Assembly (NCBI GenBank): GCA_900769705.1
Contig: CAAGHP010000016.1
Coordinates: forward strand, 13,210-77,209
Reading direction: 5' to 3'
DNA: 64,000 nt
From: Alphaproteobacteria bacterium
GTDB lineage: Bacteria; Pseudomonadota; Alphaproteobacteria; RF32; CAG-239
Below, one piece after another: positions 3,012-64,000 of the stretch; the first letter of the stretch is position 1, and every line of letters begins with the position of its first letter. Below the pieces are notes generated by a model. That model had not been told where the DNA came from. It saw nothing but the letters and a program-made list of their open reading frames with translations, and searched no databases. The position numbers and the translations under genes were made by a program.

Positions 3012-5720
3012 ATGAAAAAACTATTAACTTATATAATTTTTTTAATTTTTGTTTTCAAGAGCTTTGCCGCTTATTCTGCTGAACCGCAGTTACCTGATGA
3101 CTTTAAAGGGTTGAATATGCGCGAGCGGCTGGCTGAACTTGCTGATGATGAAAGAGCCGAGCTTCCTTTGCTGCAAAGAATTTTGATTATGTATGAAATC
3201 GGAAATTATTTTAATAATAAGTATCCGAATGATGAAGTTTATGATGAAGATTTTGATGAAAAGTTGAAACCTTTTTTCCCAAACGCCGATGAATATCAGC
3301 TGCGTAAATACACAAATTTGCTGCGCACCGGTATAACCGTATATCGGCTGGGGCGTTTTGTGTATAACAAATATGTAACGCAAAAGCTGGTGCCGGCAGC
3401 TTATCGGCAAGTGCATTCCGAAAGTGATTTTGACCATCCAGACGAGGTTAAGTATCAGGAGGCTCCGACCGGAGAATTTATAAAAGTTTATAATTTCAAA
3501 AAATTTTTGACCTATAGCCATAATCCTGAAGAGCGGAAAGCAATTGAAGATTATAAAAAACTTCAGACTTCAAAAGATGATGTTTATGCTCAGTTTGAAT
3601 ATGCTTTGACGCATATCGAATGGAAAAAACTGCTGCTGTACGGGGAAAAATATAAGAATCCTTTGCTTTCGGATTTTGGAGTTGGAGAATTTGAGGAAGG
3701 TTTGGATGTCAGAGTGAGACTGCTGTCTGACGCCACTACTATTAACGGACAGAAAGAGTTTTATGCAGGACTGCAAGTCAATACGGAAAATAATAAGTTT
3801 GTATTGGCCAATAATTTGGCAAGTGATATGCAAAAGCCTCGGATAGATTTGCAAAAATCCAAAAATTTGGAAAGCTATCAGGTTTTGTATCCGGCACCGC
3901 AGAATTCTGTTTCTTTTCCGTTTGCTTACAAATATTTCGGCAATTTTCTCATTCCGATAAAAGTAACGGTAAAAAATCCGGAAGAGCCTCTGCTGCTGAA
4001 TGCTAAAGTAAATATGACGGTATGCGACGGAGCTTTGGCCTGTTTGGAACAAAGTTTTGAGCCGAAACTTATTGTTTTGACCGGAAAGGATTTTTCGTTT
4101 ACCAACGGTTATCAAAATTTCTTTCAGCAAAACATAAATATGCTGCCGAATAACGAATCGGAAAAGCTTAAATTGGAAAAATTTGTGGTTGATAAAGATG
4201 CTGACGGCGAATCTTTGCGGCTGGAATTTGAGTTGAACGGCGATATGGAAAGTTTTAATATTTTTATTGAAGACACAGACGGATATAATTTATTTTCGGT
4301 TCCGTTTATCAGTATTCAGGATAATAAAATTTTTGTCCGTTTTGAGCCTCTGAATAAGCATGCAAAACTGGAAAATACCGAGTATATAATCACAACCGTG
4401 CTGAACGGTTATGAGGCTTACCGTACAACCAGACTGGTGGCGCAAGCAGCATTGTTTGACACCGAAACGGCCTCTTTGAGCTTGGGACTGCTGTTGCTTG
4501 CAGTTTTGGGCGGTTTTATTCTTAATTTTATGCCGTGTGTATTTCCGGTTTTGTCGCTTAAAATCATCAGTTTGAGCCGAGCGCAGTCAATGCAGCAAAA
4601 ACGTCTGAAAAAATCGCTTTTTATAACGGTATGCGGCATTTTCAGTGGATTTACAATTTTGATTGTGCTGTTGCTGGCGGCAAAGTTTGCCGGATATTCT
4701 TTAGGCTGGGGCATGCAATATCAAAATATGACATTTTTAGTTATAATGTCGTTTGCTTTGGCTGGTTTTATGCTGATTTTACCAAGACTGCAAAGTTCAA
4801 GGCTGCAAAATATCAGTGTTTCGCAAGAAAAAAAACTTGGCTTTTTAATAGGTAATCTGATTGTGTTGCTGTCTACGCCGTGTACAGGACCATATCTGGC
4901 GACAGCTGTAGGTTTTGCTCTGGGTGGCAGCTATTCCGATATTATCCAGATAATGTATGCTGTGGCTTTGGGCTTGAGTATTCCGTATCTGCTAGCTTTG
5001 ACGATAAATAATCCGGAAACTTTGCTGCCAAAGCCCGGAAGCTGGCTGAATGTGCTGCAGAGTTGCATGCGCTTGATGCTGTTTTTGACTATTTGCTGGT
5101 TTGCTGTGCTGATTTATAATCAAACTGATTCTAATTGCGTGTTGATTTTGGCTGTATTTTTGCTGATATTTTGCGGAGTATTTGTCTTATATCGCCGTTT
5201 TACGGATTATTTAGATGGAGTTTTTGATGAAAGCGTAACGCTGGAAGTTATTGAGCGTCTGCGCAAAATCAGCCGAATAGCAATTTGCGGCTTATTTGCG
5301 GTTTTGGTTACCATAATGTCGTTTTATGCCGAAAATTCGCATCAGCATAATTTGCTTGAAAATGCCGTAACAAGGCAAACATTTTTAGATAAAAAAATGA
5401 TTGCCGAAAAGCTGGGAGCAGGGCGTTCAGTACTGTTGGAGATTGGAGCTGATTGGTGCTTGACCTGCCATTATAACGGCGTGATGACGCTGACGGATAA
5501 AAATTTAAAAATTTGGAATGAAATCTATAATATGGACTTTGTTAAAGTCGATTGGACCAATTATAATAAAGAGGTTTTGGATTTTATGGCTAAATACGGT
5601 CGCAAAGGATTGCCTTTTTATATTCTGTATACGCCGCTGATGCGCGACGGTCTGGTGTTGCCGGAGATTTTTACAAGCCGAGAGTTGGAAAATATTTTGC
5701 AGACATCGGCGCTGCGATAA
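3012..5720 (+). CDS. DsbD-family thiol:disulfide interchange protein with a long N-terminal periplasmic extension
   Basis: Start reassigned to 'MKKLLTYIIF' (signal peptide). Periplasmic Cys pair 'CDGALAC'; multi-TM core with 'MPCVFPVLSLK' and 'TPCTGP'; C-terminal thioredoxin-like 'WCLTC' CxxC. The track ORF's first 73 aa are a spurious extension. Confidence 0.6.
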   Translation: MKKLLTYIIFLIFVFKSFAAYSAEPQLPDDFKGLNMRERLAELADDERAELPLLQRILIMYEIGNYFNNKYPNDEVYDEDFDEKLKPFFPNADEYQLRKYTNLLRTGITVYRLGRFVYNKYVTQKLVPAAYRQVHSESDFDHPDEVKYQEAPTGEFIKVYNFKKFLTYSHNPEERKAIEDYKKLQTSKDDVYAQFEYALTHIEWKKLLLYGEKYKNPLLSDFGVGEFEEGLDVRVRLLSDATTINGQKEFYAGLQVNTENNKFVLANNLASDMQKPRIDLQKSKNLESYQVLYPAPQNSVSFPFAYKYFGNFLIPIKVTVKNPEEPLLLNAKVNMTVCDGALACLEQSFEPKLIVLTGKDFSFTNGYQNFFQQNINMLPNNESEKLKLEKFVVDKDADGESLRLEFELNGDMESFNIFIEDTDGYNLFSVPFISIQDNKIFVRFEPLNKHAKLENTEYIITTVLNGYEAYRTTRLVAQAALFDTETASLSLGLLLLAVLGGFILNFMPCVFPVLSLKIISLSRAQSMQQKRLKKSLFITVCGIFSGFTILIVLLLAAKFAGYSLGWGMQYQNMTFLVIMSFALAGFMLILPRLQSSRLQNISVSQEKKLGFLIGNLIVLLSTPCTGPYLATAVGFALGGSYSDIIQIMYAVALGLSIPYLLALTINNPETLLPKPGSWLNVLQSCMRLMLFLTICWFAVLIYNQTDSNCVLILAVFLLIFCGVFVLYRRFTDYLDGVFDESVTLEVIERLRKISRIAICGLFAVLVTIMSFYAENSHQHNLLENAVTRQTFLDKKMIAEKLGAGRSVLLEIGADWCLTCHYNGVMTLTDKNLKIWNEIYNMDFVKVDWTNYNKEVLDFMAKYGRKGLPFYILYTPLMRDGLVLPEIFTSRELENILQTSALR

Positions 5721-5737
5721 GGCTCTGATATATAAAT

Positions 5738-6700
5738 TTACATGCGGCTGTTTTGAGCTTTTTGAACAGCAGTTTGACTTTGCTGAAAATCTTTGGCTTG
5801 AGCGTAATAAGTATTATTGCCGCCGAGGTTGGCAAATTCAATAACTCTTTTATCTCCGCCAAACCAAGCGTATTTAGGAGCTTTTGCCGCAGATGGTGCT
5901 GTTTGGCAGTGTTTTTTGAAATTATTTATGGTTTGATTGTCTTTTTTCAAAACCGTATAGTTGCCTTTTGCATCTTTTTTTAAAACATCAGTAACTTTTA
6001 AGCCGCGCTGACCGCCGACGTAGAAAGCGTTTATATCCGCAGGCTGTAGATATCCCATATAAGTATAAAGCTCGGCGGCGCGGCGGATGGCTAAATGATC
6101 AACAAATTTTTCTTTTTTGGTAGAAACTCTTTTCATAAAATATTTTTCAATCGCGGCTTTATCATTTTTGTTAATAGCTTCAGCCAGCGGAGATTTTTTG
6201 CCGTTTACTCCCAGAACACTGGTGCCGCTGTTGTAGCACAGGCTGACTATAGCAGCTGTTTCATTTGGGGATAATTTGCGCGTAATATATTTATCCATAG
6301 CCGGATATACTTCTCTTTCCAGATGAGAAATTACGTAGTTGTAAACTTGATTGTTATTTATGAGACGGTCGTGTTGTGTTACTCTTTCTCCGCTTGGGCG
6401 TTTGGTGTTGCCGATGCCAATAGTCCAAATTCCGACTTGGTCTTTATAAGCTTTGCGGACACAACCTTCATAAAATACCAGCTGCTGCATTATTTGGCTT
6501 TCGGCGGGACGGTATTTGGCATACTTATCGGTATTGACCGTGATTTCTTTTTTATTTGGTTTCGCTGATTTTGCGGCTGCGGCTTGAGCTTGTAAAGAAG
6601 CTGCAGGCGATAAGACAACGGACGAGGCTAACAGCGCTGTAGCAAAATTTCTTTTTCGAACTGAATTTTTGTTTTTGTCATTTTCTAATTCGTCGGTCAT
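5738..6700 (-). CDS. secreted GH24 (phage-type) lysozyme-like muramidase with C-terminal extension
   Basis: N-terminal signal-like 'RKRNFATALLASSVVLSPAASLQAQA'; GH24 core 'EGCVRKAYKDQVGIWTIGIGNT'; ~120-aa Lys-rich C-terminal tail. Confidence 0.5.
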   Translation of the reverse strand: MTDELENDKNKNSVRKRNFATALLASSVVLSPAASLQAQAAAAKSAKPNKKEITVNTDKYAKYRPAESQIMQQLVFYEGCVRKAYKDQVGIWTIGIGNTKRPSGERVTQHDRLINNNQVYNYVISHLEREVYPAMDKYITRKLSPNETAAIVSLCYNSGTSVLGVNGKKSPLAEAINKNDKAAIEKYFMKRVSTKKEKFVDHLAIRRAAELYTYMGYLQPADINAFYVGGQRGLKVTDVLKKDAKGNYTVLKKDNQTINNFKKHCQTAPSAAKAPKYAWFGGDKRVIEFANLGGNNTYYAQAKDFQQSQTAVQKAQNSRM

Positions 6701-6868
6701 TTTATCCTCCGTATGACTTATTTCTTAATTATAGCGTAAAAACAAATGAAGGTCAATCAAATTATACAAAAAACAAAAAATTGAGGCTGTTTTGACAATA
6801 ACATATCTTGACAAGCAAAATACTTATTTATATACCTCTATAAATAAGATGTTATATGGAGAAATAAT

Positions 6869-8425
6869 ATGCTGAAAAAACTTATTTTGTTGTTGGCTGT
6901 TTCCGGTATTGCCGTCGGCAGCTGGTATGGTTGGCAGGAATACAGTGCCAATCGGGAGAGTGTCTTGAAAAGCCATATTGAAAAAGACTTTTCGTTTGAC
7001 AGTGTTGTCCGCAAAGCACGTAAATTGGCCGGCGAACCGTATCAAATGCCGAATACTTCACTGCCGGAAGAATTAAACAATTTAAGCTATGATGAACACC
7101 GCGATATTCGTTTTGTACGTGAAAACGGTCCGTGGTATAATCAAAATCTGCCTTATGAAATTCAATTTTTCCATTTGGGAAATATTTTTCAGATTTCTGT
7201 GCCGATTAACGAGGTTATAGACGGTGTTTCGCAAAGCATTAAATATTCCAGTAAGTTTTTTGACTACGGCAAAAATAATCTGCATACCGAACAGTTTGAA
7301 AATTTAGGCTATGCCGGTTTTAGAATCCACAGCCCGCTCAATACGTCGGCTTATTTTGATGAGCTGGTAACATTTTTGGGCGCCAGTTATTTCCGCGGCT
7401 TGGCAAAAGGGCAAAAGTACGGGCTTTCGGCACGCGGCTTGGCGATTGATACGGCGGAAATGACCGGAGAAGAATTTCCGGTATTCAAAGAATTTTGGGT
7501 GGAAAAACCAAAGCCTAAAGATAAATTTATCAAGCTTTATGCGTTGCTTGACAGTAAGAGCGTAAGCGGCGCCTATAGCTTTAAGATTATTCCGGGGACA
7601 AACACTATCATGGATATTGAAGCCCGCTTATTTGCTCGCGCCGATATTAAAAAAATTGGCATTGCACCGCTGACATCTATGTTTTTGTTTGGCGAAAATA
7701 ATAAGCATGAATTTGACGACTATCGTCCGGAAGTGCATGACAGCGATGGTTTGCTGATTCATAACGGCAATGATGAATGGCTGTGGCGTCCGCTGGATAA
7801 TTCTAAACATCTGCGCATCAGCTCGTTTATGGATAACAATCCAAAAGGCTTCGGTCTGCTGCAGCGCGACCGCGATATTGAAAACTATTTGGACTTTGAG
7901 GCAAATTATCAAGACCGTCCGAGCGCTTGGGTTGAGCCGTTAAACGATTGGGGCAAAGGTTTGGTGCAGCTGGTGGAAATTCCGTCTTTGCAGGAAATTC
8001 ATGATAATATTGTGGCTTATTGGGTGCCGGAACAGATGATAAAAGCCGGCGGAGAATATGATTTTTCGTATCGTCTGATTTGGCTGAATGAAGTTATGAA
8101 AGAGCGTGAGTTGGCCGCTGTTGTGGCAACACGCACCGGAGTCGGAGGCGTTTCAGGCATCAATTTAGGCAATACCGACCGCAAGTTTGTGATAGATTTT
8201 GCAGGTAAAGGTTTGAATGCTGAATTTGCCAAAAATAATATCAAACCGCAGGTTTCAGCAATTAAAGGTAAAATTAACGGCGTCAGCAGCATATACAATC
8301 CTGTTACCAAAGGAATTACCGTTTATGTCGATTATCATCCTGAAGACGGCGATGAAATTCGCGTGCTGCTGACAAAAGATGAAAATCCGATTTCAGAAGT
8401 ATGGAGTTATCAATGGTTAAACTAA
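6869..8425 (+). CDS. opgG: glucans biosynthesis protein G (periplasmic OPG biosynthesis)
   Basis: 518 aa with signal peptide; MdoG-family similarity throughout; sits upstream of opgH. Confidence 0.75.
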   Translation: MLKKLILLLAVSGIAVGSWYGWQEYSANRESVLKSHIEKDFSFDSVVRKARKLAGEPYQMPNTSLPEELNNLSYDEHRDIRFVRENGPWYNQNLPYEIQFFHLGNIFQISVPINEVIDGVSQSIKYSSKFFDYGKNNLHTEQFENLGYAGFRIHSPLNTSAYFDELVTFLGASYFRGLAKGQKYGLSARGLAIDTAEMTGEEFPVFKEFWVEKPKPKDKFIKLYALLDSKSVSGAYSFKIIPGTNTIMDIEARLFARADIKKIGIAPLTSMFLFGENNKHEFDDYRPEVHDSDGLLIHNGNDEWLWRPLDNSKHLRISSFMDNNPKGFGLLQRDRDIENYLDFEANYQDRPSAWVEPLNDWGKGLVQLVEIPSLQEIHDNIVAYWVPEQMIKAGGEYDFSYRLIWLNEVMKERELAAVVATRTGVGGVSGINLGNTDRKFVIDFAGKGLNAEFAKNNIKPQVSAIKGKINGVSSIYNPVTKGITVYVDYHPEDGDEIRVLLTKDENPISEVWSYQWLN

Positions 8426-8832
8426 AAGTTCAGAGCGCTGAAGATATTGTTGCTGCATATCTGACTTGTTTGGGCTTGAAAAAAAGTGATGCTCCGCAAG
8501 TGCTTAGCTTCTATCCGCAGTTGGCAGAATCCGGCAATATTATGGCTGAGCTTGATGATATAATATACCAGAAAGCTAGGAGTATTTATAAGCTGAAAAT
8601 GGCAAAAGTTCAGCTTGTTGCTGTGTATAAAGCAGCATTTGCTGATATCGGAGCTGCTAAAGAATATGGAGCTGAAGCATTGTTGCCGGAATTTGATGAT
8701 AAAAATTTTGCAGCGGCGATGCGGCAGGCTTATATTGAAGCTGCTCCATCGTATAAACTGACAGAAATGCCAACACAGAAAATTGAAACAATTCAGCTGC
8801 ATAAACACAAATCCAAGGGAGAAAAAAAGTGA
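8401..8832 (+). CDS. hypothetical protein between opgG and opgH
   Basis: 143-aa ORF overlapping both neighbours; no recognisable motif; the antisense ORF is larger, so coding status is uncertain. Confidence 0.25.
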   Translation: MELSMVKLKVQSAEDIVAAYLTCLGLKKSDAPQVLSFYPQLAESGNIMAELDDIIYQKARSIYKLKMAKVQLVAVYKAAFADIGAAKEYGAEALLPEFDDKNFAAAMRQAYIEAAPSYKLTEMPTQKIETIQLHKHKSKGEKK

Positions 8833-10856
8833 TGAAAACCCGCCCGATAAGCGCCGCGCAAATCACGTTCAGGCGTGTTTTGATTTTCGGCTTGATGATT
8901 TTAACGACAACGTTTTTGACTTTTAAATGGGCTGTTTCTATGCCGACTGACGCCAATATGTTTGCGCGCGTGGTTATGACTGTGTTGTTCGTGCTGACAA
9001 CCGGTTGGATTGCTTTGTTCTTTTGGGCAAGTATTTTCGGCTTTTTTGAACTGCTCGCCGGTAAGAATATGCCGGGGATTATTTGGCCTGAAAAGAAAAC
9101 GCCGCTTAAAACCAAAACCGCTGTCTTAATGCCGATATATAATGAGGAATGCGATATGGTTTATGCCCGTTTGCTGGCAATTGCCAATAGTTTGGTAAAA
9201 ACAGGGCAGGCGCAGGCTTATGATATGTTTGTGCTGAGCGATACTACAAATCCGAAAATTTGGGTAGAAGAAGAAAACGGCTGGATTAACACCAAAAAAC
9301 TGATGCCGAAAGAGATAAATCTGTATTACCGCCGCCGTCCGCTGAATGTGGCACGCAAAAGCGGCAATATTGCAGATTTCTGCCACAAATGGGGCGCACT
9401 CTATGACTATATGGTGGTGCTGGATGCCGATAGCTTGCTGGAAGGTAAAACCATTGTAGAAATGTCGCGTTTGATGGAAATCAATGTTGATACCGGCATT
9501 ATTCAGGCACCGCCGCAATGCATTAACAGCCATTCGCTGTTTGCCCGCGTGCAGCAATTTGCCGGCAAGGTTTACGGCAATATTGTTTCGGCAGGTTTGT
9601 GCTATTGGCAAGTACATGATAGCAACTATTGGGGACACAACGCCATTATCCGCGTCAAAGCTTTTATGGAATGCTGTGGGTTGCCGATTTTGAAAGGCCC
9701 AAAACCGTTCGGCGGTCATATTTTGAGCCATGATTTTGTGGAAGCAGCACTGATTCGTCGCGGCGGCTGGTATGCTTGGCTGCTGCCGGAATTGGGAGGA
9801 AGCTACGAAGAATGCCCGCCGACAATGATAGATTTTGCCACCCGCGACCGCCGCTGGTGCCAAGGCAATATTCAGCACTTGGAAATTTTGGTATCAAAGC
9901 ATATTCACCCAATCAGCCGCATTCATTTTACTATTGGCATTATGTCTTATCTGTCGTCGCCGCTGTGGTTTATCTTTTTGGTAGCCGGAATTTTAGTAGC
10001 GCTGGGGCATGTTTATTTTCCGCCTGAATATTTTCCTAACGAGCAGTCATTGTTTCCGAATTGGCCGATTTTTGATAAAATGGGAACAATCACGCTGTTT
10101 TTGATTTCTATGTTTATGCTTATTTTTCCTAAGTTTTTAGGTATGATTATTTATCTTAAAAATAACAAGTTCAAAAACATTGGCGGCTTTTTCGGTACCG
10201 TGAAAAGCGTGCTGGCCGAGATTGCTTTTTCAGCTTTGATTGCGCCGGTTATGATGGTTTTCCAAACTAAATTCGTCTGGGAGATTCTGACGGGGCAAGA
10301 TGTGGGCTGGAACACGCAGAGCCGCGATGGTTACACTACATGGAAAGAGGCTTTTGAACGCCATATCGGACACACTATTTTAGGTGTACTGACAACTTAT
10401 GTGGTATATACTCAGTTGCCGGCGCTGTTTTATTGGATGCTGCCGGTAACTTTGGGTTTGATGCTTTCCATTCCGCTTTCGGTGCTGTCTTCATACGAGG
10501 GATTGGGGCGCTTTGCCTTTAGGCATAACTGGTTTGTGATTCCTGAAGAAAAACATGCTCCGGAAATTACCTTAACTGTGCAAAAAGAAGCTCCTGTTTT
10601 GCAAAAACAAAGCAAAAAGCGCGGAGTTTTGGATGTGATAGAAGATAATTATCTGCTGCAAATTCATACGCTGATGCTGGAGGTCAACGGTCCGGCTCCC
10701 GATTTTGGCAAGTCGGTTTTAAATGAAGCGCGTATAAAGCTGGATAATTATTTGCATTACGGTAAGGAACCGGATTTCAGTCGCGAAGAAGAAATTGCCC
10801 TGTTGTACGAACCGGCAATTTTGGAAGAAGCCAGTTTGGAACTGAAATTAAAGTAA
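8829..10856 (+). CDS. opgH: glucans biosynthesis glucosyltransferase H (GT2, membrane)
   Basis: 675 aa; GT2 'DAD' and 'QxxRW'-type 'RDRRWCQGN'; multiple TM segments. Likely ATG at 8832. Confidence 0.8.
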   Translation: MMKTRPISAAQITFRRVLIFGLMILTTTFLTFKWAVSMPTDANMFARVVMTVLFVLTTGWIALFFWASIFGFFELLAGKNMPGIIWPEKKTPLKTKTAVLMPIYNEECDMVYARLLAIANSLVKTGQAQAYDMFVLSDTTNPKIWVEEENGWINTKKLMPKEINLYYRRRPLNVARKSGNIADFCHKWGALYDYMVVLDADSLLEGKTIVEMSRLMEINVDTGIIQAPPQCINSHSLFARVQQFAGKVYGNIVSAGLCYWQVHDSNYWGHNAIIRVKAFMECCGLPILKGPKPFGGHILSHDFVEAALIRRGGWYAWLLPELGGSYEECPPTMIDFATRDRRWCQGNIQHLEILVSKHIHPISRIHFTIGIMSYLSSPLWFIFLVAGILVALGHVYFPPEYFPNEQSLFPNWPIFDKMGTITLFLISMFMLIFPKFLGMIIYLKNNKFKNIGGFFGTVKSVLAEIAFSALIAPVMMVFQTKFVWEILTGQDVGWNTQSRDGYTTWKEAFERHIGHTILGVLTTYVVYTQLPALFYWMLPVTLGLMLSIPLSVLSSYEGLGRFAFRHNWFVIPEEKHAPEITLTVQKEAPVLQKQSKKRGVLDVIEDNYLLQIHTLMLEVNGPAPDFGKSVLNEARIKLDNYLHYGKEPDFSREEEIALLYEPAILEEASLELKLK

Positions 10857-51454: not shown

Positions 51455-52027
51455 ATGACAGATATTAAAAATTTTGTAAAAACTGTCAAAGAGTTTAATT
51501 CTCAGTTGACAGCAAAGATATTTACCGGCTTTGATTATGACTTTATTAACAAAGTTATAGTGTATTATTTTATACACAATAATGCCGGTATTATGTTTCC
51601 TGATAAAAACGTTGCAGCGTTGTTTGATAATCAACTGGCAGATAGCGGTTTTAGATCTTTTAAGGTAGATAAAGATGCTTTTTTGAAAATGATATCATCC
51701 GATGAGGATTATGTTCATTTCAAATCTTTAGTTTTGCCTAAGAACGGCGATATACTTCTTGAAAAATGGTGCCGCATGATTCGCAACACTGTTGACCGCA
51801 ATGTTAAATCAACGATGTCAACAAAGCTCGGACGCCATTCTATACCAGAAAAAACTATTGAGGTGATGATGGCTAAAGGTTTGTATAAAACGACAGAAGA
51901 AGCTAGAGCCGGCTATATTGAATCTCAAAAGCTGACAAAGTTTATTATGGGAACTTTTATATTTATGAGGGCAAGCTCTTATGTTTTTAGCTTTTTCAAA
52001 GAACAAGCCGAAAAGAAAAATGCTTGA
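51455..52027 (+). CDS. hypothetical protein, member 3 of a tandem paralog triplet
   Basis: 190 aa; paralogous to 50806-51336 (see above). Confidence 0.4.
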   Translation: MTDIKNFVKTVKEFNSQLTAKIFTGFDYDFINKVIVYYFIHNNAGIMFPDKNVAALFDNQLADSGFRSFKVDKDAFLKMISSDEDYVHFKSLVLPKNGDILLEKWCRMIRNTVDRNVKSTMSTKLGRHSIPEKTIEVMMAKGLYKTTEEARAGYIESQKLTKFIMGTFIFMRASSYVFSFFKEQAEKKNA

Positions 52028-52040
52028 AACTGCAACAAAA

Positions 52041-52073
52041 AACTTCCGATATTTTGTATCGGAAGTTTTTTTG
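52041..52073 (+). terminator. intrinsic terminator (same hairpin sequence as 51346-51378)
   Basis: 'aacttccgatat-tttg-tatcggaagtt' plus 'tttttttg'. Confidence 0.55.
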
Positions 52074-52246
52074 TCTTCAGAAAAAACACGTTGTTAACTG
52101 TTTCCTGATGAACTTCTTCCTTAAAGGGGGATTTCCTCTTTCTGGGGTACAGTTCATAAAATGCGTTGGTCTCTTTTTTATATCTTCAGTATTGATAAAT
52201 AATTTCAAAACATTCACATCTCTTACCTTGTATTTACTTGCGCAAA

Positions 52247-52903
52247 CTACAGGATAATCGTCAAGGCGCATCTTTTTGTTTTATCACAAGAGGAACACAT
52301 TGATTTCATTTTAGATAAAGTCATTGTGTTCAAACACGGACGACCGGTACTGCAAAAAGTGTCACCGTAGTAATACCCATTGCCGCCGGGCATTAAAATT
52401 CCTCTTATGGTATAATGAAGTGGCACCGCGATTTTATCCAAAACTTCAAAACATAAATTTCCGTTAAAGTTAGCTGCGATTTTTTCACCTTTGTCATTTT
52501 CCGTCAACCCGCCGAATATAAAGTCAATAATAATCCCCGATTCCTCTGGACTGGCATATCCGTACGCATTGCTGTACTCTCTGTAAAACGTACCAATAAA
52601 ATTTCCATAATTATCCTGTATATATTGAGATGAAATTTTTTGCCAAGTGTTGGGTATTAAATTTAAAGAAATCAACATATCAGACAAAAAAACTTGACCT
52701 TTTAGCTGCTCTTGCAAATTTTGTCTGTATTCCAACAGCCCGAAAATTAAATTATTATAATCGGTTATCAGTTTATTTATCTTGTACTTTTCCATAGCTT
52801 TTGAATATCCGGCGATACCACCTACACTAAGTACTGCGATAATCGCCAGAACGCCCAACATCTCAATCATACTGCGCCCGTTTTCTATAAATTTTTTGTA
52901 CAT
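52247..52903 (-). CDS. prepilin-like protein, paralog 4
   Basis: 'MYKKFIENG|RSMIEMLGVLAIIAVLSVGGIAGYSKAMEKYKINK'; C-terminal 'CSTGRPCLNTMTLSKMKSMCSSCDKTKRC'. Confidence 0.5.
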   Translation of the reverse strand: MYKKFIENGRSMIEMLGVLAIIAVLSVGGIAGYSKAMEKYKINKLITDYNNLIFGLLEYRQNLQEQLKGQVFLSDMLISLNLIPNTWQKISSQYIQDNYGNFIGTFYREYSNAYGYASPEESGIIIDFIFGGLTENDKGEKIAANFNGNLCFEVLDKIAVPLHYTIRGILMPGGNGYYYGDTFCSTGRPCLNTMTLSKMKSMCSSCDKTKRCALTIIL

Positions 52904-52932
52904 ATTTCTAACTCCGTTTATTTTGTTACACT

Positions 52933-53112
52933 AAAAACAAAACCCGCTGTTTTAAGCGGGCGGATGTTAGCAAACCGTATCAGTATAAACGGCTCGGCTT
53001 ATTCAGCGCTTAGCCTTATTTAGCCGACATCCGTCCAACGGAAATCGGCATAACAAATTTTAAGTCGTTTATGCAAAAACGACTATACTGATAAAGGGTT
53101 GCTACACCCTAA
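52933..53112 (-). promoter_or_regulatory. conserved structured 5' leader element, copy C, with terminator hairpin, upstream of prepilin-like paralog 4
   Basis: Aligns with copies A and B. Terminator 'cccgct-taaaac-agcggg' plus 'ttttgttttt'. Internal hairpin 'agtcgttt-ttgcat-aaacgact'. Confidence 0.45.
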
Positions 53113-53271
53113 AAGCATTATCGTGCTTTCAGCAATCAGTTTAACTAAACAAACAAAAAATGTAAAGCTTAAAATTGTAATGCTCTATAAAACATCCACG
53201 CCGTTATTTTTCTATTTTAAACGGTATTAACTTTTATCAGAAAAGGTAACAAAGCAATTTTATATCGCCGG

Positions 53272-57229: not shown

Positions 57230-57305
<76 letters not shown>

Positions 57306-57429
57306 GACAAAACAGAGAATGTCAACAAAACGTTACTTTAATAACATAAAGTTTTTTTATTGTCAAATTTATTTTTGAAAAATTTTGCAAAAGAGATAAA
57401 AGATAAGAACGCTGCAGCTATTTAAGGTA

Positions 57430-58092
57430 TTAGATGGTTTCAATCAGGTTTTTCATATCGGACAGTCTATCTTCGGGATATTCAATATTTTTGTCATCAT
57501 CTTTTAAGTGATTTACATAATTATAAAGTGTTTTGCGGTTACAATTTAAAAGTCCGGCAATTTGGGCGATTGGTATATTTTCATCCATCATCTGTATAAT
57601 TTTGTCAACATGCTCATCCAGCCTTTTTTTGTTGTTTTTGTGTCCTGAGGGGCGTCCCAGCGGCCGACCTTCGTTGCGGACACGGTTTAAAGCTTCTTTG
57701 GTGCGCTGAGAAATTAAATTGCGTTCAATCTCTGCCGAGAGGCCGAAGGCAAAAGCTAAAACTTTGCTTTGAATATCGGCGCCGAGCCGGTAATTGTCTT
57801 TGATTGTCCAGACCTGAGCTTCTTTATTCAGGCAATAGTGTAAAATACTCATTACTTGCAGCAAATTTCGGCCCAAGCGCGACAATTCTGTGGCAATCAA
57901 AATATCATTCTGTTTCAGGTTTTCGAGCAAAAAGCCGAGCTTGCGTTTTTCTAAAGATTCAGTGGCGCTGATTGTTTCCATAATCCAGCGATTAACTTTC
58001 ATTTTTTCTCTTTTGCAAAACTGTTCAATCTCAAATTTTTGGTTTTTAGTTGTTTGTTTGTCCGTGCTGACACGGATATAACCGTATATCAT
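57430..58092 (-). CDS. serine recombinase (resolvase/invertase family)
   Basis: N-terminal 'MIYGYIRVSTDKQ' with catalytic Ser; ~220 aa; C-terminal HTH; AT-rich gene. Confidence 0.8.
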   Translation of the reverse strand: MIYGYIRVSTDKQTTKNQKFEIEQFCKREKMKVNRWIMETISATESLEKRKLGFLLENLKQNDILIATELSRLGRNLLQVMSILHYCLNKEAQVWTIKDNYRLGADIQSKVLAFAFGLSAEIERNLISQRTKEALNRVRNEGRPLGRPSGHKNNKKRLDEHVDKIIQMMDENIPIAQIAGLLNCNRKTLYNYVNHLKDDDKNIEYPEDRLSDMKNLIETI

Positions 58093-58754
58093 TTTTTCTC
58101 CTTTAATTGTGATATAAAGCTATATTTTGAATGAATAATCAAAAACTTGCTACTAAATAAATTTTTGAAAAGCCGTTTATTTCATGTTAAAGTTTTAATC
58201 TGAATAATAATTTAATACATTCGTTACAGAAATACCCCGATTTATCGGGAGTTGAATGCAAAGGTGTCGTTAGACACCGTTCCACGCCAACGAGCGTGGT
58301 CAAACCGTAGGTTTGTATCAATAATAGAACCACCAGTTTACCGGGGGATATCTATTAACAAAAACCTTATTTTCGTGGATTTTGTTAATTTAAATTTACA
58401 AAAACGCAAAAAATGAAAAACGCAAAAAATGAAAAATTGTAAATTCTAATTTACAAAAATTTATGAGGTGGTCTTAAAATGATAGTGGTATGATTTTGCA
58501 ATGTTTTATATGTCGATTGTCATCGTTTCCCTGTGTTTTGAGCACGAAAATAGAGTTTTTATGATAAATGATGTACAAAACAGTACCACTGCGTTGTATG
58601 ACGAAAAAATGCAAGGGAATTGATATTGGTATATTTTAGCATACGGTGGTTTTAAAAATAATAGTTTCATTTTTGCAACTATTATCTTGATTCTGTTAAA
58701 TATTTGTTTAAGACTTCCTTTCGATTTAATCGGTTTTGAGGGCGAAATCATAAT

Positions 58755-61700
58755 TTATATGAACTGGTCGTAAATTTTCAAGGCTAACTTATTTATACAT
58801 TTTTCAATGAATGTTATATCCTTACCTTGCTTCACTTTCTTGTGTGCTTGTTTTGATAAATTTGCTAATCTTCTGTGGAACTTATTTTTCTTATCATATT
58901 TATCCAATTTAATCGGCAAATCTGTTTTATAAGAACGTGTATCTGAAGATCCTTTTATATAAGATGTAACAATTTCAGAATTCAGTATAGCACATATATA
59001 ATGAGCTTCATCTTCCTCAATAAAATTATTATTTAAATCTTGAGAAATAGAACAAGCATGATCCAATAAAATAGGAGTTGTTTTACCAATAATTGTATTA
59101 ATCGTAGAGACAACACAGGCCAGCCATTTAGTATTATTTCTAAATACAACTCTATATGGAGCAAAGGAATAGTCACCTACACGTGTTAAACTATAAAATT
59201 CTCCCTTATTCCCTTGCACCTTAGTGTTATAAGATGTCTTATTAAAATGCGATTTGTTAGCTTCATAATAAGATAGTAAAAGAGGACTTTCTTTTTGCAA
59301 AACATTTTTAACTATAGGTATTTTTCGGTTTTCTTTTTTATAAGGAAAAGGTGCAAAAAATTGTAAATCTTTTAAACCAAATTTAATGATATCAGGGCCT
59401 TCAATAACAGGATGAATATATTTTCTTTCTAATAGAGTAGTAATTTTGGCTATTTTCTTCTCACTTTTAGAATTTTGATAATTTTCTACAAGGATATTAT
59501 TTCCACGTATATCTTTTATCTCAAACAATAGTAATTCTTTCGGATATAATCCCAAACCAACTCTTCCTTTATAATGACATTCTCCTGGTATATTTTTTAA
59601 GATTTCAATTTCTTTCTTTTCTTCAGTGAAAGTGAAATTATTAAATATCTTAGTATTTTGAAAACAATATAAATTTTCTTCATTTAAACGAGATAATGCT
59701 TCCGAATAGCTTAAATTATATGTGTCTTTATTAATAGTCATTTTATTTTTTAATTTCATCTTTACTGCAATCGTTTCGGATAAATACTCATTAGTCTTTT
59801 TTAAATAATAGCTCATAAATTTCTCGGAAACAGGGTCAAAAGGCTTTCCAGCCAAACTCCAATCAAATAATTTATCAAACTTTAAAGGCACACCATCTGT
59901 TTGGCATAGATTTCTGAAACCGGTATAAGACTGTTGGAATAGCATAGATTTTGGCATTAAAAATGCAAGTGTTCCTTTTTCTTTAAGCCAATTATTTGCA
60001 ACAACGTTTGTTATTAACGCACAAATATTTAAATTGATACCACCTGTGAAATTATCACCTGAAAACAAATGTTTATCAATACATATCTTCTTTAAAGTTT
60101 CTTTATATTTCTCAGGGAGATATTTCCAATCAACCCAAGGTGGATTACCCACAATAAAATCAAATCTATCAAATGTAGCAATTTTTAAGAAACCAATAAT
60201 AATTCTTACCCAAATTCTATCCCAATTTTGTTTTTCAAGCCAAATGAGTGCATCTGAAAACTGAGATAAATGTTCTAAAACTAAATTTTTTCTCTCTTTT
60301 GAAGGTAGTAAGTCTGTTAATATATTTACTAGAGCACCTTTATCTTGATTGATTACAGCATTTTCTATGCCCACAATCTTATTAATTATATTTTTGTCTT
60401 TTTTTATTAAACTGACAGGTAAGATAAAATTTAAATCACCTTTATTTGTGTATATTGTATATTTTACCAATTCTATATTTTCTTCTATTATTATTTGTGG
60501 AATAAAGGCACTATCTCCTAAGTAGACAGGAATTTCTATTTTTTGTGTAAAGTCAGTATTAATGAAAGGTGCAATGGCAATAAAATAATTTACACGACAT
60601 GTTAGAATTGCTAAGGGATTTACGTCAACAGCTTTTACACGTCTTAAAATATCATCAAGAGTAACGTTATTTTCATTTTGTAATATATTATCTATCATTT
60701 GCAATACAAATGTTCCTGATCCTGCACATGGATCTAAACCTGACCATCCATTAGGTTTATCTGCGTGTTCAATAACATGTCTAGCCAACCAAGATGGAGT
60801 ATAGTATTCTCCCAGAGAATGCCTTACTTCAGAAGGTATTATTGACTGGTATAAATCGATAAATAAATCATGGACATTGTTCGTAGCAAAAAGATATTCA
60901 TTTGAACTATATTCAGTAAGTTTATAAATGACATCTAATACAGCTTTAAATATATCGTTATTCCAAGCATCTTCATAAACATACCAAGAAAAAAAGTCAC
61001 CTTCTAATAAATTATTCAGACCAATTTGCTTAAATATTTCTCCATTTTCTATGTAATTCAATCTAACTCTTAAACCCTCAGATTCTAAGGATAGTAAATC
61101 TTGAATCTTTAATGAAGATGTGCCGAAGAATATTTCTGCTACTTTATAATAAGCAATTAATTTTATTATAATAGTGTATGCAGTATGTAATGCAAATAAA
61201 CCTCTTTGTGGATCAATAACACTCCCACAAGAAAAACATCCTTGTATGGCTTTATTCCTTGCTTTGATTGGTTTCATATTGTTTGTATCGTTACTATTTG
61301 CTAACTTAAATAAGTGTTCCCATTCTGTATACAACATAAAAGTTCTTTCAGAAGGCTTTTCCAAACATTTATATAAAGCATTGAGTAAATTTTGTGTAAC
61401 ATTAGATGTGGATTCAATAGCAAAATCCTGTAATAAATTTTGAGAAGATAATTCTCTCTTATCGATTGAAATGATAAGGCATATAATTTTCTTTAGTACA
61501 TTTTTATCAATATCAAATATAGGACTTTCTATAAATTTATCATTTTCTTTATTAACAAATATACATTTACGACCATCTATTAAAATTCCGACATATTTAG
61601 ATTCTTCTTGTTTTTCTTTTTCAGCAGCTAAAGTAATGTATTTTTTTGTTTGTATAAGATAATTATCAAGATTATCAAGAATATCTTTTTTATATTCAAA

Positions 61701-61985
61701 AATAATATTGTTGAATTTACTGTCAATTCGTCTGTTGAAATATTTTCCCGATAAACTTTTTTCTTTTAGTGACAGCTCACGTATTGGAGAATATTGTATT
61801 CCATAGTATGATAACGCTGTTTTAAGGCAATCCTCAATTTTACAAGCAATTGTTTCTTCAGAATTAGCTTGAGCTGTTTCATTTCTTAAATTTGTAGAAA
61901 TACACTCTAGTAATTTGGAATAATCCTTCGAATTTAAAAGGGCTTTATTTATTTTTGTTTTGATATCTTGATAAATGTTTGGCAT
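58755..61985 (-). CDS. single-chain type IIG (MmeI-like) restriction-modification enzyme: N-terminal PD-ExK nuclease + gamma-class N6-adenine methyltransferase + C-terminal target-recognition region
   Basis: 1076 aa. N-terminal 'RRIDSKFNNIIFEYKK' (D..ExK). MTase motif I 'LDPCAGSGTF'; motif IV 'FIVGNPPWVDW'. ~440-aa C-terminal region. Confidence 0.7.
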   Translation of the reverse strand: MPNIYQDIKTKINKALLNSKDYSKLLECISTNLRNETAQANSEETIACKIEDCLKTALSYYGIQYSPIRELSLKEKSLSGKYFNRRIDSKFNNIIFEYKKDILDNLDNYLIQTKKYITLAAEKEKQEESKYVGILIDGRKCIFVNKENDKFIESPIFDIDKNVLKKIICLIISIDKRELSSQNLLQDFAIESTSNVTQNLLNALYKCLEKPSERTFMLYTEWEHLFKLANSNDTNNMKPIKARNKAIQGCFSCGSVIDPQRGLFALHTAYTIIIKLIAYYKVAEIFFGTSSLKIQDLLSLESEGLRVRLNYIENGEIFKQIGLNNLLEGDFFSWYVYEDAWNNDIFKAVLDVIYKLTEYSSNEYLFATNNVHDLFIDLYQSIIPSEVRHSLGEYYTPSWLARHVIEHADKPNGWSGLDPCAGSGTFVLQMIDNILQNENNVTLDDILRRVKAVDVNPLAILTCRVNYFIAIAPFINTDFTQKIEIPVYLGDSAFIPQIIIEENIELVKYTIYTNKGDLNFILPVSLIKKDKNIINKIVGIENAVINQDKGALVNILTDLLPSKERKNLVLEHLSQFSDALIWLEKQNWDRIWVRIIIGFLKIATFDRFDFIVGNPPWVDWKYLPEKYKETLKKICIDKHLFSGDNFTGGINLNICALITNVVANNWLKEKGTLAFLMPKSMLFQQSYTGFRNLCQTDGVPLKFDKLFDWSLAGKPFDPVSEKFMSYYLKKTNEYLSETIAVKMKLKNKMTINKDTYNLSYSEALSRLNEENLYCFQNTKIFNNFTFTEEKKEIEILKNIPGECHYKGRVGLGLYPKELLLFEIKDIRGNNILVENYQNSKSEKKIAKITTLLERKYIHPVIEGPDIIKFGLKDLQFFAPFPYKKENRKIPIVKNVLQKESPLLLSYYEANKSHFNKTSYNTKVQGNKGEFYSLTRVGDYSFAPYRVVFRNNTKWLACVVSTINTIIGKTTPILLDHACSISQDLNNNFIEEDEAHYICAILNSEIVTSYIKGSSDTRSYKTDLPIKLDKYDKKNKFHRRLANLSKQAHKKVKQGKDITFIEKCINKLALKIYDQFI

Positions 61986-62168
61986 AAATACAATCCATAT
62001 AATAAAACTAACTACTAAAATGATATTATAAAATAGTTAAAATATGACAAATTTTTTTGTTTTTTTAAATCTTCGAAGAATCTCTGCATAATTATTATAT
62101 TTTTGTTAGTTCTTAGATTTTATTGTAATACTGTATAGATAACAAAAAACAGCTACATAGGTGACTAT

Positions 62169-63893
62169 ATGAGAATTAATAGATTAACAATCCAGAATTA
62201 TCGGTCTTTTGCTGATGAAGTTGCAATAGAGTTTCCAAACATTGCTAAACCAATAGCTATAATCGGGCATAATAATGCTGGAAAGTCAAACCTGATAGAT
62301 GCTTTACTGATGGTTATGGGAAAAAAGAGCGTATATGGTAATAATTTTTCTAAAAACGATTTTTTCAATCATAATATTAACGAGGATATAATAATAAGTG
62401 CCAAAATTACGGATGATGATTGCCTAATACAAGCCGATGCATTTAATAAGACACAGACCATAGATAGTATTAAATTAATTATAAGTTGTGAGGACGGTTT
62501 TTGCGATAGCAATCATATTTTGTGTGATAATAATGGTAAACAAATAAGATTATCTCAATCTATACCACAATCAAAGAAAAATGATTATTCTGATGAAGAA
62601 AAAAAGGCTTTCAAAGAACGCAGAACAGATGGACTTTTATATTTTACGAAAATCAAAAATAAGATACCGCTATATTTTATTGATCCAACAAATATTCAAG
62701 ATGAATTATCTCCAAAAAAGAACAGTATACTTGCTGATGTGATGAAAAAAGTTAAAGTAAGTTTTGAAAAAGATAGATTTCCTAAAGATTTTCCTAAAGA
62801 AACATGGCAAGGAAAAACGAGAAAAGACATATTTAACAACTATCTAAAATTTGTTGAAAATAATGTGCTTAAAACAAAAGAGTTAGATGAGTTGGTTGAG
62901 TGTATAACAGAAGAGATAATGTCTCAACTTGGATTAGATTCAGATAACTTTGATTTAAGTCTAAGTATTCCTGATATAGATGTTTTCTATAAAAATTTAG
63001 ACTTTTTGCTAAAAGATAATGACGACCCTCAAAAACCGAAGTTACCAATATGTAATTATGGTCGAGGATTTTCATTGCTGTTTATTGTTGCATTATTAAA
63101 AATATTGTCAAAGTCAAAGGATGGTGGAAAAATATTTGTTATCGAAGAACCAGAAACATTTTTACACGAGCATTATCAAGAATATTTCTATCAAGTGTTA
63201 TGTGAGTTAGCGAAAAATAATCAAGTAATATACACCACTCATTCAAAAAAGTTTATTGATTTATTTAATCCTAAAACAATAATTAAGCTTGATAATCAAG
63301 GATATAAACATACAGAAGTTATTCAAAATAAAGACGAATTTATAACATATCCGAATGACTATGCAAAATATATTACTTCCATAGAACCTAATTTGGGTAA
63401 TCTTATTTTTTCAGATAAAGTGCTTATAGTAGAAGGTTCTCATGATATTTTAGCTTATAAAATGGCATTTAGTGATGTTAATTTTGGGTTAAATAATATA
63501 TCAATAGTAGCCGCTTTTGGTAAAGATGGAATAGTGAATCTTATTAATTTATGTAAGTTGTATAAAATTGATTATTTTGCTGTGCATGATTGGGATATTG
63601 AAAGAGAAGATATTGATGTTTCTATTGAGTCAGATAGTAGTTCCGATTATGCAGCATTAACTAAAGAAGAAAAGGCTCAATATACCAAAAATCATAAGTT
63701 ATTGACTGTTGCAGGTACTAATAAAATACATCAAAATAAAAAACGTTTAGAAGAAGTCCTTGGTATTCCTCAAGCAGATAAAGGGTGTGAAGCAATTTAT
63801 GAAAAACTAAAAGATTTATCCAGAGAAGAAATACAAAAACAATATCCTAAGCTGATTGATGACAACTTATTAAATTTTTTGGAGTTTAAATAA
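62169..63893 (+). CDS. OLD-family ATP-dependent nuclease (ABC-type ATPase + C-terminal Toprim)
   Basis: Walker A 'GHNNAGKSNLIDAL'; Walker B 'IFVIEEPETFLHE'; H-loop 'IYTTHS'; Toprim 'VLIVEGSHDILAY' and 'AVHDWDIE' (DxD). Confidence 0.7.
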   Translation: MRINRLTIQNYRSFADEVAIEFPNIAKPIAIIGHNNAGKSNLIDALLMVMGKKSVYGNNFSKNDFFNHNINEDIIISAKITDDDCLIQADAFNKTQTIDSIKLIISCEDGFCDSNHILCDNNGKQIRLSQSIPQSKKNDYSDEEKKAFKERRTDGLLYFTKIKNKIPLYFIDPTNIQDELSPKKNSILADVMKKVKVSFEKDRFPKDFPKETWQGKTRKDIFNNYLKFVENNVLKTKELDELVECITEEIMSQLGLDSDNFDLSLSIPDIDVFYKNLDFLLKDNDDPQKPKLPICNYGRGFSLLFIVALLKILSKSKDGGKIFVIEEPETFLHEHYQEYFYQVLCELAKNNQVIYTTHSKKFIDLFNPKTIIKLDNQGYKHTEVIQNKDEFITYPNDYAKYITSIEPNLGNLIFSDKVLIVEGSHDILAYKMAFSDVNFGLNNISIVAAFGKDGIVNLINLCKLYKIDYFAVHDWDIEREDIDVSIESDSSSDYAALTKEEKAQYTKNHKLLTVAGTNKIHQNKKRLEEVLGIPQADKGCEAIYEKLKDLSREEIQKQYPKLIDDNLLNFLEFK

Positions 63894-64000
63894 CTATCTT
63901 TTCTTCTATCCCAGCCTTGATAAATTTATGGGTTTTGTTTTTGTACGGTGAGAAACGGCAGATACCGCCGTGAGGGGTAGTGGTTTTCTTTCCGCAAAAT

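Follow-up and report, generated by a model that had tools for sequence, protein, structure and literature searches.

The question raised by this locus is whether an OLD-family nuclease gene lying at the very end of a sequenced stretch of DNA is complete in itself or is one half of a two-gene defence system. The stretch (here referred to as the window) comprises 64,000 nucleotides (nt) of contig CAAGHP010000016.1 (assembly GCA_900769705.1, positions 13,210 to 77,209) from an uncultured Alphaproteobacteria metagenome-assembled genome (MAG), and the gene (here referred to as the OLD gene; 62169..63893, plus strand) is followed by 107 nt of sequence after its stop codon. An initial annotation, made from the letters of the sequence, had correctly remarked on this short remainder and had named two candidates, a stand-alone Class 1 OLD and the GajA nuclease of a Gabija system whose gajB partner would sit beyond the edge, leaving the choice open. 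OLD classes are defined by genomic context, and Class 1 is the single-gene class (PMC7049728, PMC10568477, PMC12392090), with no UvrD/PcrA/Rep-like helicase immediately downstream (PMC7049728, PMC10568477). Class 1 OLD nucleases are found in 0.45% of genomes by DefenseFinder (PMC12392090), and the only ones studied in the literature are P2 Old, Ts OLD, Vc OLD and Escherichia coli YbjD. Our analysis indicates that the gene very probably encodes a stand-alone (Class 1) OLD-family nuclease acting as a single-gene anti-phage defence, with near-identical loci in other strains and the neighbours of family homologues now deciding between the two candidates.

Domain architecture and class of the OLD protein

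The open reading frame (ORF) begins with ATG and encodes 574 amino acids (aa), and its assignment to the OLD family draws on the ORF itself, PADLOC, a phmmer search of PDB sequences and Foldseek. Pfam places AAA_15 over aa 1-363 (the ABC ATPase region, 62169..63257; 4.5e-26) and OLD-like_TOPRIM over aa 413-476 (the Toprim core, 63405..63596; 3.1e-10), both above the curated cut-offs, as are additional AAA_21 and SMC_N matches. An inserted, mostly helical stretch at about aa 140-290, within the ATPase region, is a putative dimerisation domain. The Toprim core, which carries E422-G423, D426 and D474-x-D476, is followed by a short C-terminal extension (aa 477-574; 63597..63890) in which E528 aligns to E480 of Ts OLD from Thermus scotoductus. 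Residues were mapped by the phmmer alignment to Ts OLD together with the residue list of Schiltz et al. 2020 (PMC7049728).

Conservation was read from an alignment of 39 sequences chosen from the collected OLD homologues (alignment A1), in which the catalytic positions are invariant or nearly so (in at least 36 of the 39), with G33, G38, E326 and G423 differing in a few sequences. The Walker A motif is G33-H-N-N-A-G-K39-S40, and K39 (62283-62285) is invariant. Position 326 in the Walker B-like motif I-F-V-I-E326-E327-P-E329 (E326 codon, 63144-63146) is E in 36 of the 39 sequences and D in the other 3, while the D-loop H333 and the H-loop H358 (63240-63242) do not vary. The same holds for the Toprim residues E422, D426, D474 and D476 (D474-W-D476), for the C-terminal motif H521-x-N523-K-x-x-L-E528 and for K538; position 423 is G in 35 of the 39. 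The initial annotation had described a complete OLD architecture, an ABC ATPase and a Toprim domain with E-G and D-x-D motifs, and this description was borne out by the Pfam domains and the mapped catalytic residues, all of which are present; the Toprim residues E422, D474 and D476 align to E377, D431 and D433 of Ts OLD. The gene is also under purifying selection, because its ratio of nonsynonymous to synonymous substitution rates (dN/dS) is 0.18 against an allele of 97% identity and 0.10 against one of 69% identity.

The main grounds for the class assignment are genomic context, the full-length profile and the ranking of structures. At full length, the best PADLOC model was Old (1.3e-35, 121 bits, profile positions 2-501 of 578), and the GajA models reached at most 88 bits. 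In a phmmer search against all PDB sequences, Ts OLD (6P74) was the sole OLD-family match (7e-25), and no GajA or Bp/Xcc OLD entry appeared at an E value of 0.01 or below. An AlphaFold2 model of the protein (predicted local distance difference test [pLDDT] score, 83.8; predicted template modeling [pTM] score, 0.79) gave a concordant order in Foldseek, with 6P74 first (E value, 1.5e-32; TM scores, 0.65/0.72, the second normalised to the target; 22% identity), GajA second (5e-21; 0.58/0.54; 15-17% identity) and the retron-Eco8 OLD after GajA (3e-15). The C-terminal helical domain of Class 2 enzymes is missing, because only 46 aa follow E528, similar to the 48 aa after E480 in Ts OLD.

By analogy with characterised relatives, the protein is most likely a dimeric, ATPase-regulated, two-metal Toprim DNA nuclease, in which dimerisation, DNA as the substrate and the anti-phage role would all be carried over from those relatives. 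In such an enzyme, the N-terminal ABC ATPase with its inserted helical dimerisation domain would bind and hydrolyse ATP through K39, E326, H333 and H358 and would thereby govern the Toprim nuclease at the C-terminus, which would use two metal ions to cut DNA. E422, D474 and D476 would hold metal A, whereas metal B would be bound by D426 and E528, probably together with either N523 or H521; K538 is the likely counterpart of R487 in Ts OLD. Upon phage infection, the enzyme would be expected to nick or degrade replicating phage DNA, as has been demonstrated for P2 Old, Ts OLD and Vc OLD (PMC7049728, PMC10568477, PMC12392090).

Downstream DNA and competing classifications

The region beyond the window edge was viewed in contigs of related strains found by exact-protein look-up. 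Three of these loci (L001-L003) are 99.1% identical in nucleotide sequence to window positions 57260-64000 and encode an identical OLD protein, and a fourth locus (L099, one of the strains retrieved through the invertase described below) is 99.2% identical to the window over 10.7 kb. Across such near-identical strains, the OLD protein is either identical or 99% identical. No UvrD/PcrA-like helicase lies 3' of the OLD gene in these four loci or in L101-L104. A look past the edge for a gajB helicase, as the initial annotation had proposed, therefore turned up none in the contigs of near-identical strains.

What does follow the OLD gene is a DUF6538 ORF on the opposite strand. In L099 and L101-L104, a DUF6538 ORF of 182 aa abuts the OLD gene and overlaps its 3' end by 8 nt. 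In L001, a domain-less 57-aa ORF, which is spurious in all three loci L001-L003, comes first, followed by a minus-strand DUF6538 ORF of 230 aa with frameshifted remains. The window itself holds the tail of this decayed ORF (63886..64000, minus strand), which corresponds to the C-terminal end of the 182-aa ORFs in L099 and L101: read from 64000 to 63889 on the minus strand, it translates to a DUF6538 C-terminal tail, ...FCGKKTTTPHGGICRFSPYKNKTHKFIKAGIEEKIVI*, whose stop codon (63886-63888) again overlaps the OLD 3' end by 8 nt. The DUF6538 ORF is probably the N-terminal remnant of an integrase; Pfam, which reports DUF6538 only, confirms no integrase domain in it, and the label is one that we infer. 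Its length varies among loci (308, 230, 182 and 158 aa; L001 6618-7700 compared with L099 and L101), with the 182-aa form produced by an internal deletion of ~470 nt, which joined it in frame to the sequence next to the OLD stop codon. The frameshifted continuation in L001 contains '…LYSGMRL…', which recalls tyrosine recombinases, although Pfam confirms no integrase domain there either.

Two further features of the last nucleotides had been raised in the initial annotation. The shift to a GC-richer composition after the OLD stop codon is real, from 0.26-0.28 inside the OLD gene to 0.316 in the last 500 nt of the window, and it reflects the boundary of a variable cassette (described below) and the minus-strand DUF6538 remnant rather than a partner gene. 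A plus-strand GTG open to the window edge does exist at position 63970; its frame closes 101 nt past the edge in L001 (6823-6825), could encode ~43 aa at most and runs antisense to the DUF6538 ORF. Rfam returned nothing credible for a noncoding RNA or tRNA fragment in the GC-richer tail, and no terminator was found 3' of the OLD gene.

Farther out in L001-L003, past the DUF6538 ORF, are genes for a DUF262/GmrSD_N protein and then a RiboL-PSP HEPN protein. In L001 (7966-10153), the former is 398 aa long and matches PADLOC NsnA (5e-62) and PD-T4-2_A (5e-39), and the RiboL-PSP-type HEPN protein that follows it is 332 aa long. The pair looks like a separate two-gene defence module beyond the DUF6538 remnant.

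The wider family gave a consistent picture. A scan of 185,579 reference genomes (the GTDB representative set) yielded 80 OLD loci with 27-45% identity, none of them from the window's own genome. In these loci, ORFs lying on the same strand and no more than 250 nt from OLD were taken as neighbours and scanned with Pfam. None of the 38 same-strand downstream neighbours carries a UvrD-helicase domain. No close OLD homologue was found among 50,697 phage records. A gene for a 250-aa protein lies 6-15 nt 3' of OLD in three loci (L006 7801-8553, L009 7795-8547 and L020 7801-8550) from Sedimentisphaerales-type homologues that are 45% identical to the query; the 250-aa copies are 86% identical to one another, have no Pfam domain and match PADLOC AbiJ weakly (0.0077). 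This gene and OLD may form a clade-specific two-gene system. As a family-wide partner it was rejected, with tblastn finding it in the Sedimentisphaerales-type clade only, and no remnant of it was detected by tblastn in the window or in L001.

With these data, the candidate classifications can be weighed against one another. Identity as GajA of a Gabija system, with gajB just past the edge, might be suggested by a length similar to that of GajA, by the many PADLOC GajA models that match the protein (1e-16 to 1e-25) and by the second place of GajA structures in Foldseek. The initial annotation had indeed remarked that 574 aa is essentially the length of GajA, but length is not diagnostic, because P2 Old, the founding Class 1 member and collinear with our protein, is 586 aa long. 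Moreover, the residues by which our protein exceeds Ts OLD fall in the ATPase/dimerisation part and not in the Toprim/C-terminal part, which is where Class 2 enzymes differ. (Bp OLD, which the same annotation listed as Class 1, is a Class 2 enzyme [PMC6755086, PMC7049728, PMC10568477].) Against Gabija stand five independent near-identical loci with a minus-strand DUF6538 remnant rather than a helicase after the OLD gene, the window's own last 115 nt (63886-64000) encoding the tail of that remnant, the lack of UvrD domains among the family's downstream neighbours, the failure of GajA to appear in the PDB sequence search and the lack of the Class 2 C-terminal helical domain. We regard a Gabija identity as effectively refuted, its probability being negligible. 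Some points also favor a PARIS-like fusion enzyme (Class 4-type) with a Toprim domain that would cleave tRNA rather than DNA: taken alone, the ATPase region finds its best PADLOC match in AriA (2.9e-26), and the literature mentions AriA-AriB fusions (PMC12392090). The isolated C-terminal region, however, has no AriB match in PADLOC, only Old and GajA models; Pfam calls it OLD-like_TOPRIM; the best full-length PADLOC match is Old; and the nearest structure is that of a DNA nuclease, Ts OLD. We consider a tRNA-cleaving enzyme of this kind very improbable.

Several observations nevertheless weigh against the Class 1 assignment or limit what can be drawn from it. The initial annotation had proposed a comparison of profiles; at full length this favors Old over GajA, but the separate domains do not discriminate, with the Toprim part alone scoring 33.8 bits for Old and 32.4 for GajA and the ATPase part alone scoring higher for AriA (91 bits) than for Old (84 bits). 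Domain-split PADLOC scanning was therefore rejected as a means of separating classes. The metal-B residue S478 of Ts OLD aligns to R526, a position that varies among N, K and R in alignment A1, and so the metal-B site appears to differ in detail from that of Ts OLD. The protein shares only 21-22% identity with the characterised Class 1 enzymes, whose substrate and trigger are therefore not confidently transferable. In addition, the downstream call is based on contigs of strains that are 99.1-99.2% identical and not on the DNA of the window's own genome. A review also describes Class 1 OLDs as 'not proximal to other defence genes' (PMC10568477), whereas this OLD gene adjoins a Type IIG restriction-modification (R-M) enzyme in a defence hotspot; that statement is a descriptive generalisation that does not define the class, and OLD genes in the vicinity of R-M/BREX loci have since been reported (PMC12839542).

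Other known systems were considered and rejected. Class 3 (retron effector) was set aside, with no reverse transcriptase domain among the neighbours and tRNA-Ala the only Rfam match. The two-gene form of Class 4, which is PARIS (PMC7049728, PMC10568477, PMC12392090), does not fit a single ORF in which ATPase and Toprim are fused and that has no AriB match. Matches to mad1, mad2 and mad3 of MADS in PADLOC, on three adjacent genes, reflect shared domains only, and the NCBIfam equivalogs score far below their cut-offs (MAD3, 27.5 bits against 420; MAD2, 24 bits against 720). Menshen/Nsn, whose NsnB is weakly matched by the OLD ATPase, was rejected because L099 and L101 lack the DUF262/HEPN pair with its NsnA-like gene, which belongs to a separate cassette beyond the DUF6538 remnant.

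Restriction-modification neighbours and the variable cassette

Next to OLD in the window is a gene for a Type IIG R-M enzyme of 1076 aa (58755..61985, minus strand; PADLOC REase_MTase_IIG, 2.4e-156; Pfam N6_Mtase and Eco57I), here referred to as the IIG gene. The two genes diverge from an AT-rich intergenic region (61986..62168), in which one weak promoter-like site (62064-62092) was found, not above chance. The last ~90 nt of this region, from 62079, travel with the OLD gene. An OLD allele of 97% identity (P0001) is present in another cassette (L101), where OLD and the ~90 nt upstream are 96.9% identical to the window and nucleotide homology begins only at 62079, 90 nt before the start of OLD. 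Because OLD and its upstream ~90 nt occur in a different cassette, the gene behaves as an autonomous module that is shuffled independently of the IIG gene, and a functional autonomy from the neighbouring R-M enzyme may accompany this physical one.

The two genes also differ in how well they are kept. The IIG gene is intact in the window, but in L001-L003 it has a frameshift at the position corresponding to window 59554 (L001 2241-2280), where one A is lost and CCCAAACC becomes CCCAACC, and in L099 it is broken elsewhere (L099 6903-7048). The 90% cluster of the IIG protein contains fragments of 259, 397, 651, 768 and 822 aa, while OLD stays at 573-575 aa. Disruption of the IIG gene at at least three independent positions in strains with an intact OLD gene suggests repeated inactivation, or possibly assembly errors.

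In the L101 cassette, the OLD gene is preceded by co-directional genes (4589-9815) for a 719-aa methyltransferase (MTase), a 447-aa S subunit and a second OLD-like protein of 574 aa, the last with AAA_21/AAA_15 and a sub-threshold OLD-like_TOPRIM match (22.1 bits). L101 carries tandem OLD paralogues, one of them apparently operonic with an R-M-like module.

R-M genes are frequent neighbours across the family as well. Methylase_S (Type I specificity, HsdS) accounts for 11 of the 38 immediate upstream neighbours, often at a distance of 4-30 nt, and HsdR, N6_Mtase/Eco57I or Type II enzymes make up several of the remainder. The HsdS-linked loci (L024, L026-L029, L031, L043, L053, L054, L059 and L080), at ~30% identity and mostly from Bacteroidota, seem to lie within Type I R-M operons.

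These neighbours raise an alternative to a nuclease that defends on its own, namely, that OLD is coupled to the adjacent R-M enzyme as a backup or 'guard' effector that fires when a phage anti-restriction protein blocks restriction, in the manner of PrrC with EcoprrI or of Ocr sensing by PARIS. In this model for the clade, the AriA-like ATPase would sense phage anti-restriction proteins or restriction failure and free the Toprim nuclease. The OLD gene adjoins an R-M-type module in both cassette types (IIG in the window; MTase, S subunit and ATPase in L101), R-M genes lie next door in L009 and L013 too, and the upstream HsdS and other R-M neighbours just described, the AriA score of the ATPase part and the description of TOPRIM/OLD backup effectors embedded in BREX/R-M-like loci (PMC12839542) all fit such a coupling. 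Yet L005 and L006 have OLD without a nearby R-M gene, the window's OLD and IIG genes are divergent and not operonic, OLD moves together with its ~90 nt of upstream sequence but apart from the IIG gene, and the IIG gene is repeatedly frameshifted beside an intact OLD. R-M genes are moreover common in all defence islands, so that the adjacency count stands without a baseline control, and the HsdS-linked members fall in a single mostly Bacteroidota subclade, so that the 11 cases are not independent. Because of this evidence for independence and the lack of a baseline control, we consider it unlikely that OLD guards the R-M enzyme, and a clade-wide sensor of restriction failure equally so; if true, an R-M-linked guard OLD would provide a second line of defence and would be the equivalent, in one polypeptide, of PARIS or PrrC.

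A Class 1 nuclease that works alone thus remains our preferred reading, and the locus adds to that class a well-delimited, intact and selectively maintained OLD from an uncultured Alphaproteobacteria MAG. It also offers natural 'experiments', with OLD in two different cassettes and the neighbouring R-M gene intact in some strains and frameshifted in others, which make it a convenient case for asking whether a bacterial Class 1 OLD defends alone or cooperates with restriction.

The OLD and IIG genes belong to a strain-variable cassette whose limits could be placed by comparison. We compared ten strains (L091-L100) obtained by look-up of an Mpi-family serine invertase (57430..58092, minus strand; NCBIfam PRK13413, 289.7 bits against a cut-off of 272) that lies in the conserved flank next to a tRNA-Ala(GGC) gene (57230..57305, minus strand; ARAGORN; Rfam tRNA, 65.3 bits). 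The left boundary lies at 58357..58396 (blastn breakpoints at 58356, 58390 and 58396), where conservation with all other strains stops and the GC content drops from ~0.40 to ~0.27. The right boundary lies at 63911..63917, where the flank of strains with other cassettes resumes: the window from 63911/63917 to 64000 matches L096 and L095 beside their DUF6538 genes with 83-87% identity. From ~58,360 to 63,915 the GC content is ~27%, compared with ~40% in the flanks, and no convincing direct repeats flank the cassette. Because conservation ends at 58356-58396 and resumes at 63911-63917, the cargo of this 5.5-kb low-GC cassette consists of an 81-aa ORF, the Type IIG enzyme and OLD.

All ten strains share an identical core flank (a gyrA-like gene, rpoD, an HI0933-like gene, tRNA-Ala and the invertase) that is about 99% identical in sequence, and the cargo after the invertase differs: GmrSD and Mrr (L091, L097 and L098), AIPR (L093 and L094), a 1296-aa Type IIG enzyme with PIN and HipA genes (L095), GmrSD with Fic and MTase/S (L096), Hxs-like radical-SAM genes (L092), IIG and OLD (L099), or no defence genes next to phage genes including terminase (L100). 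The site at 58357-63917, between the tRNA-Ala/Mpi-invertase flank and the DUF6538 gene, is therefore a hypervariable defence hotspot.

Two smaller features were noted in the same region. The 81-aa ORF lies downstream of the IIG gene (58506..58751, minus strand), was taken from the ORF list and has no Pfam match; of the surrounding sequence (58424-58684), ~100-260 nt recur at 78-79% identity in L096 (7001-7241) and L101 (3541-3643), at intergenic positions of unrelated cassettes, and from this sequence likeness the stretch could be either a small gene shared among cassettes or an element of junctions or recombination. Farther to the left, a 218-aa ORF (52247-52903, minus strand) has a pilin/pseudopilin-like N-terminus (…GRSMIEMLGVLAIIAVLSVGG…) and lies in a segment (52001-53270) that is present in the window, L091, L092 and L098 and absent from L093-L097, L099 and L100, a second insertion that varies among strains within a flank conserved elsewhere.

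Comparison with known systems

The closest characterised relative is Ts OLD (PDB 6P74), which is likewise the product of a single gene without a helicase and has the same order of an ABC ATPase with an inserted dimerisation domain, a Toprim domain and a short C-terminus. Its ATPase residues K34, E276, H283 and H310 have identical counterparts in K39, E326, H333 and H358, as do its metal-A residues E377, D431 and D433 (E422, D474 and D476) and its metal-B residues D381 and E480 (D426 and E528). The two proteins are 22% identical, and ours is ~46 aa longer, with the extra residues in the ATPase/dimerisation half before Walker B. S478 and R487 of Ts OLD are replaced by R526 and Q535, for which the nearby invariant N523/H521 and K538 are likely substitutes.

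P2 Old, of similar length, has collinear ATPase and Toprim motifs through D-x-D (21% identity; E value, 3e-13). It is an accessory gene for lysogenic conversion or defence, located at the variable end of its mobile element, a setting that resembles the one described here, but P2 old is phage borne and co-transcribed with tin, whereas our gene shares a cassette in a chromosomal hotspot with a Type IIG enzyme, and the RecBCD-linked trigger of P2 Old should not be assumed for it. Vc OLD of Vibrio cholerae, a Class 1 nickase that defends against phage, is, like our protein, a bacterial single-gene OLD, and its metal-B triad is described as also deviating from that of Ts OLD (PMC12392090). GajA of Gabija (Class 2; PDB 8SM3 and 8U7I) shares the overall ATPase-Toprim fold (Foldseek, 5e-21). 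It differs, at 15-17% identity, in having a GajB helicase partner and the Class 2 C-terminal helical domain, neither of which is seen here.

Payne et al. reportedly described embedded defences in 2024. The R-M/BREX-embedded TOPRIM-OLD 'backup effector' modules (PMC12839542) are comparable to OLD loci that lie beside or inside R-M-type loci, such as those of the window, L101, L009, L013 and the 11 HsdS-linked members. They differ from the window's OLD gene, which is divergent from its R-M neighbour, is not embedded and shuffles independently. The adjacency of OLD to R-M genes is thus a pattern already described in the literature, and the protein studied here is an ordinary addition to the known Class 1 family that leaves what is known about that family unchanged.

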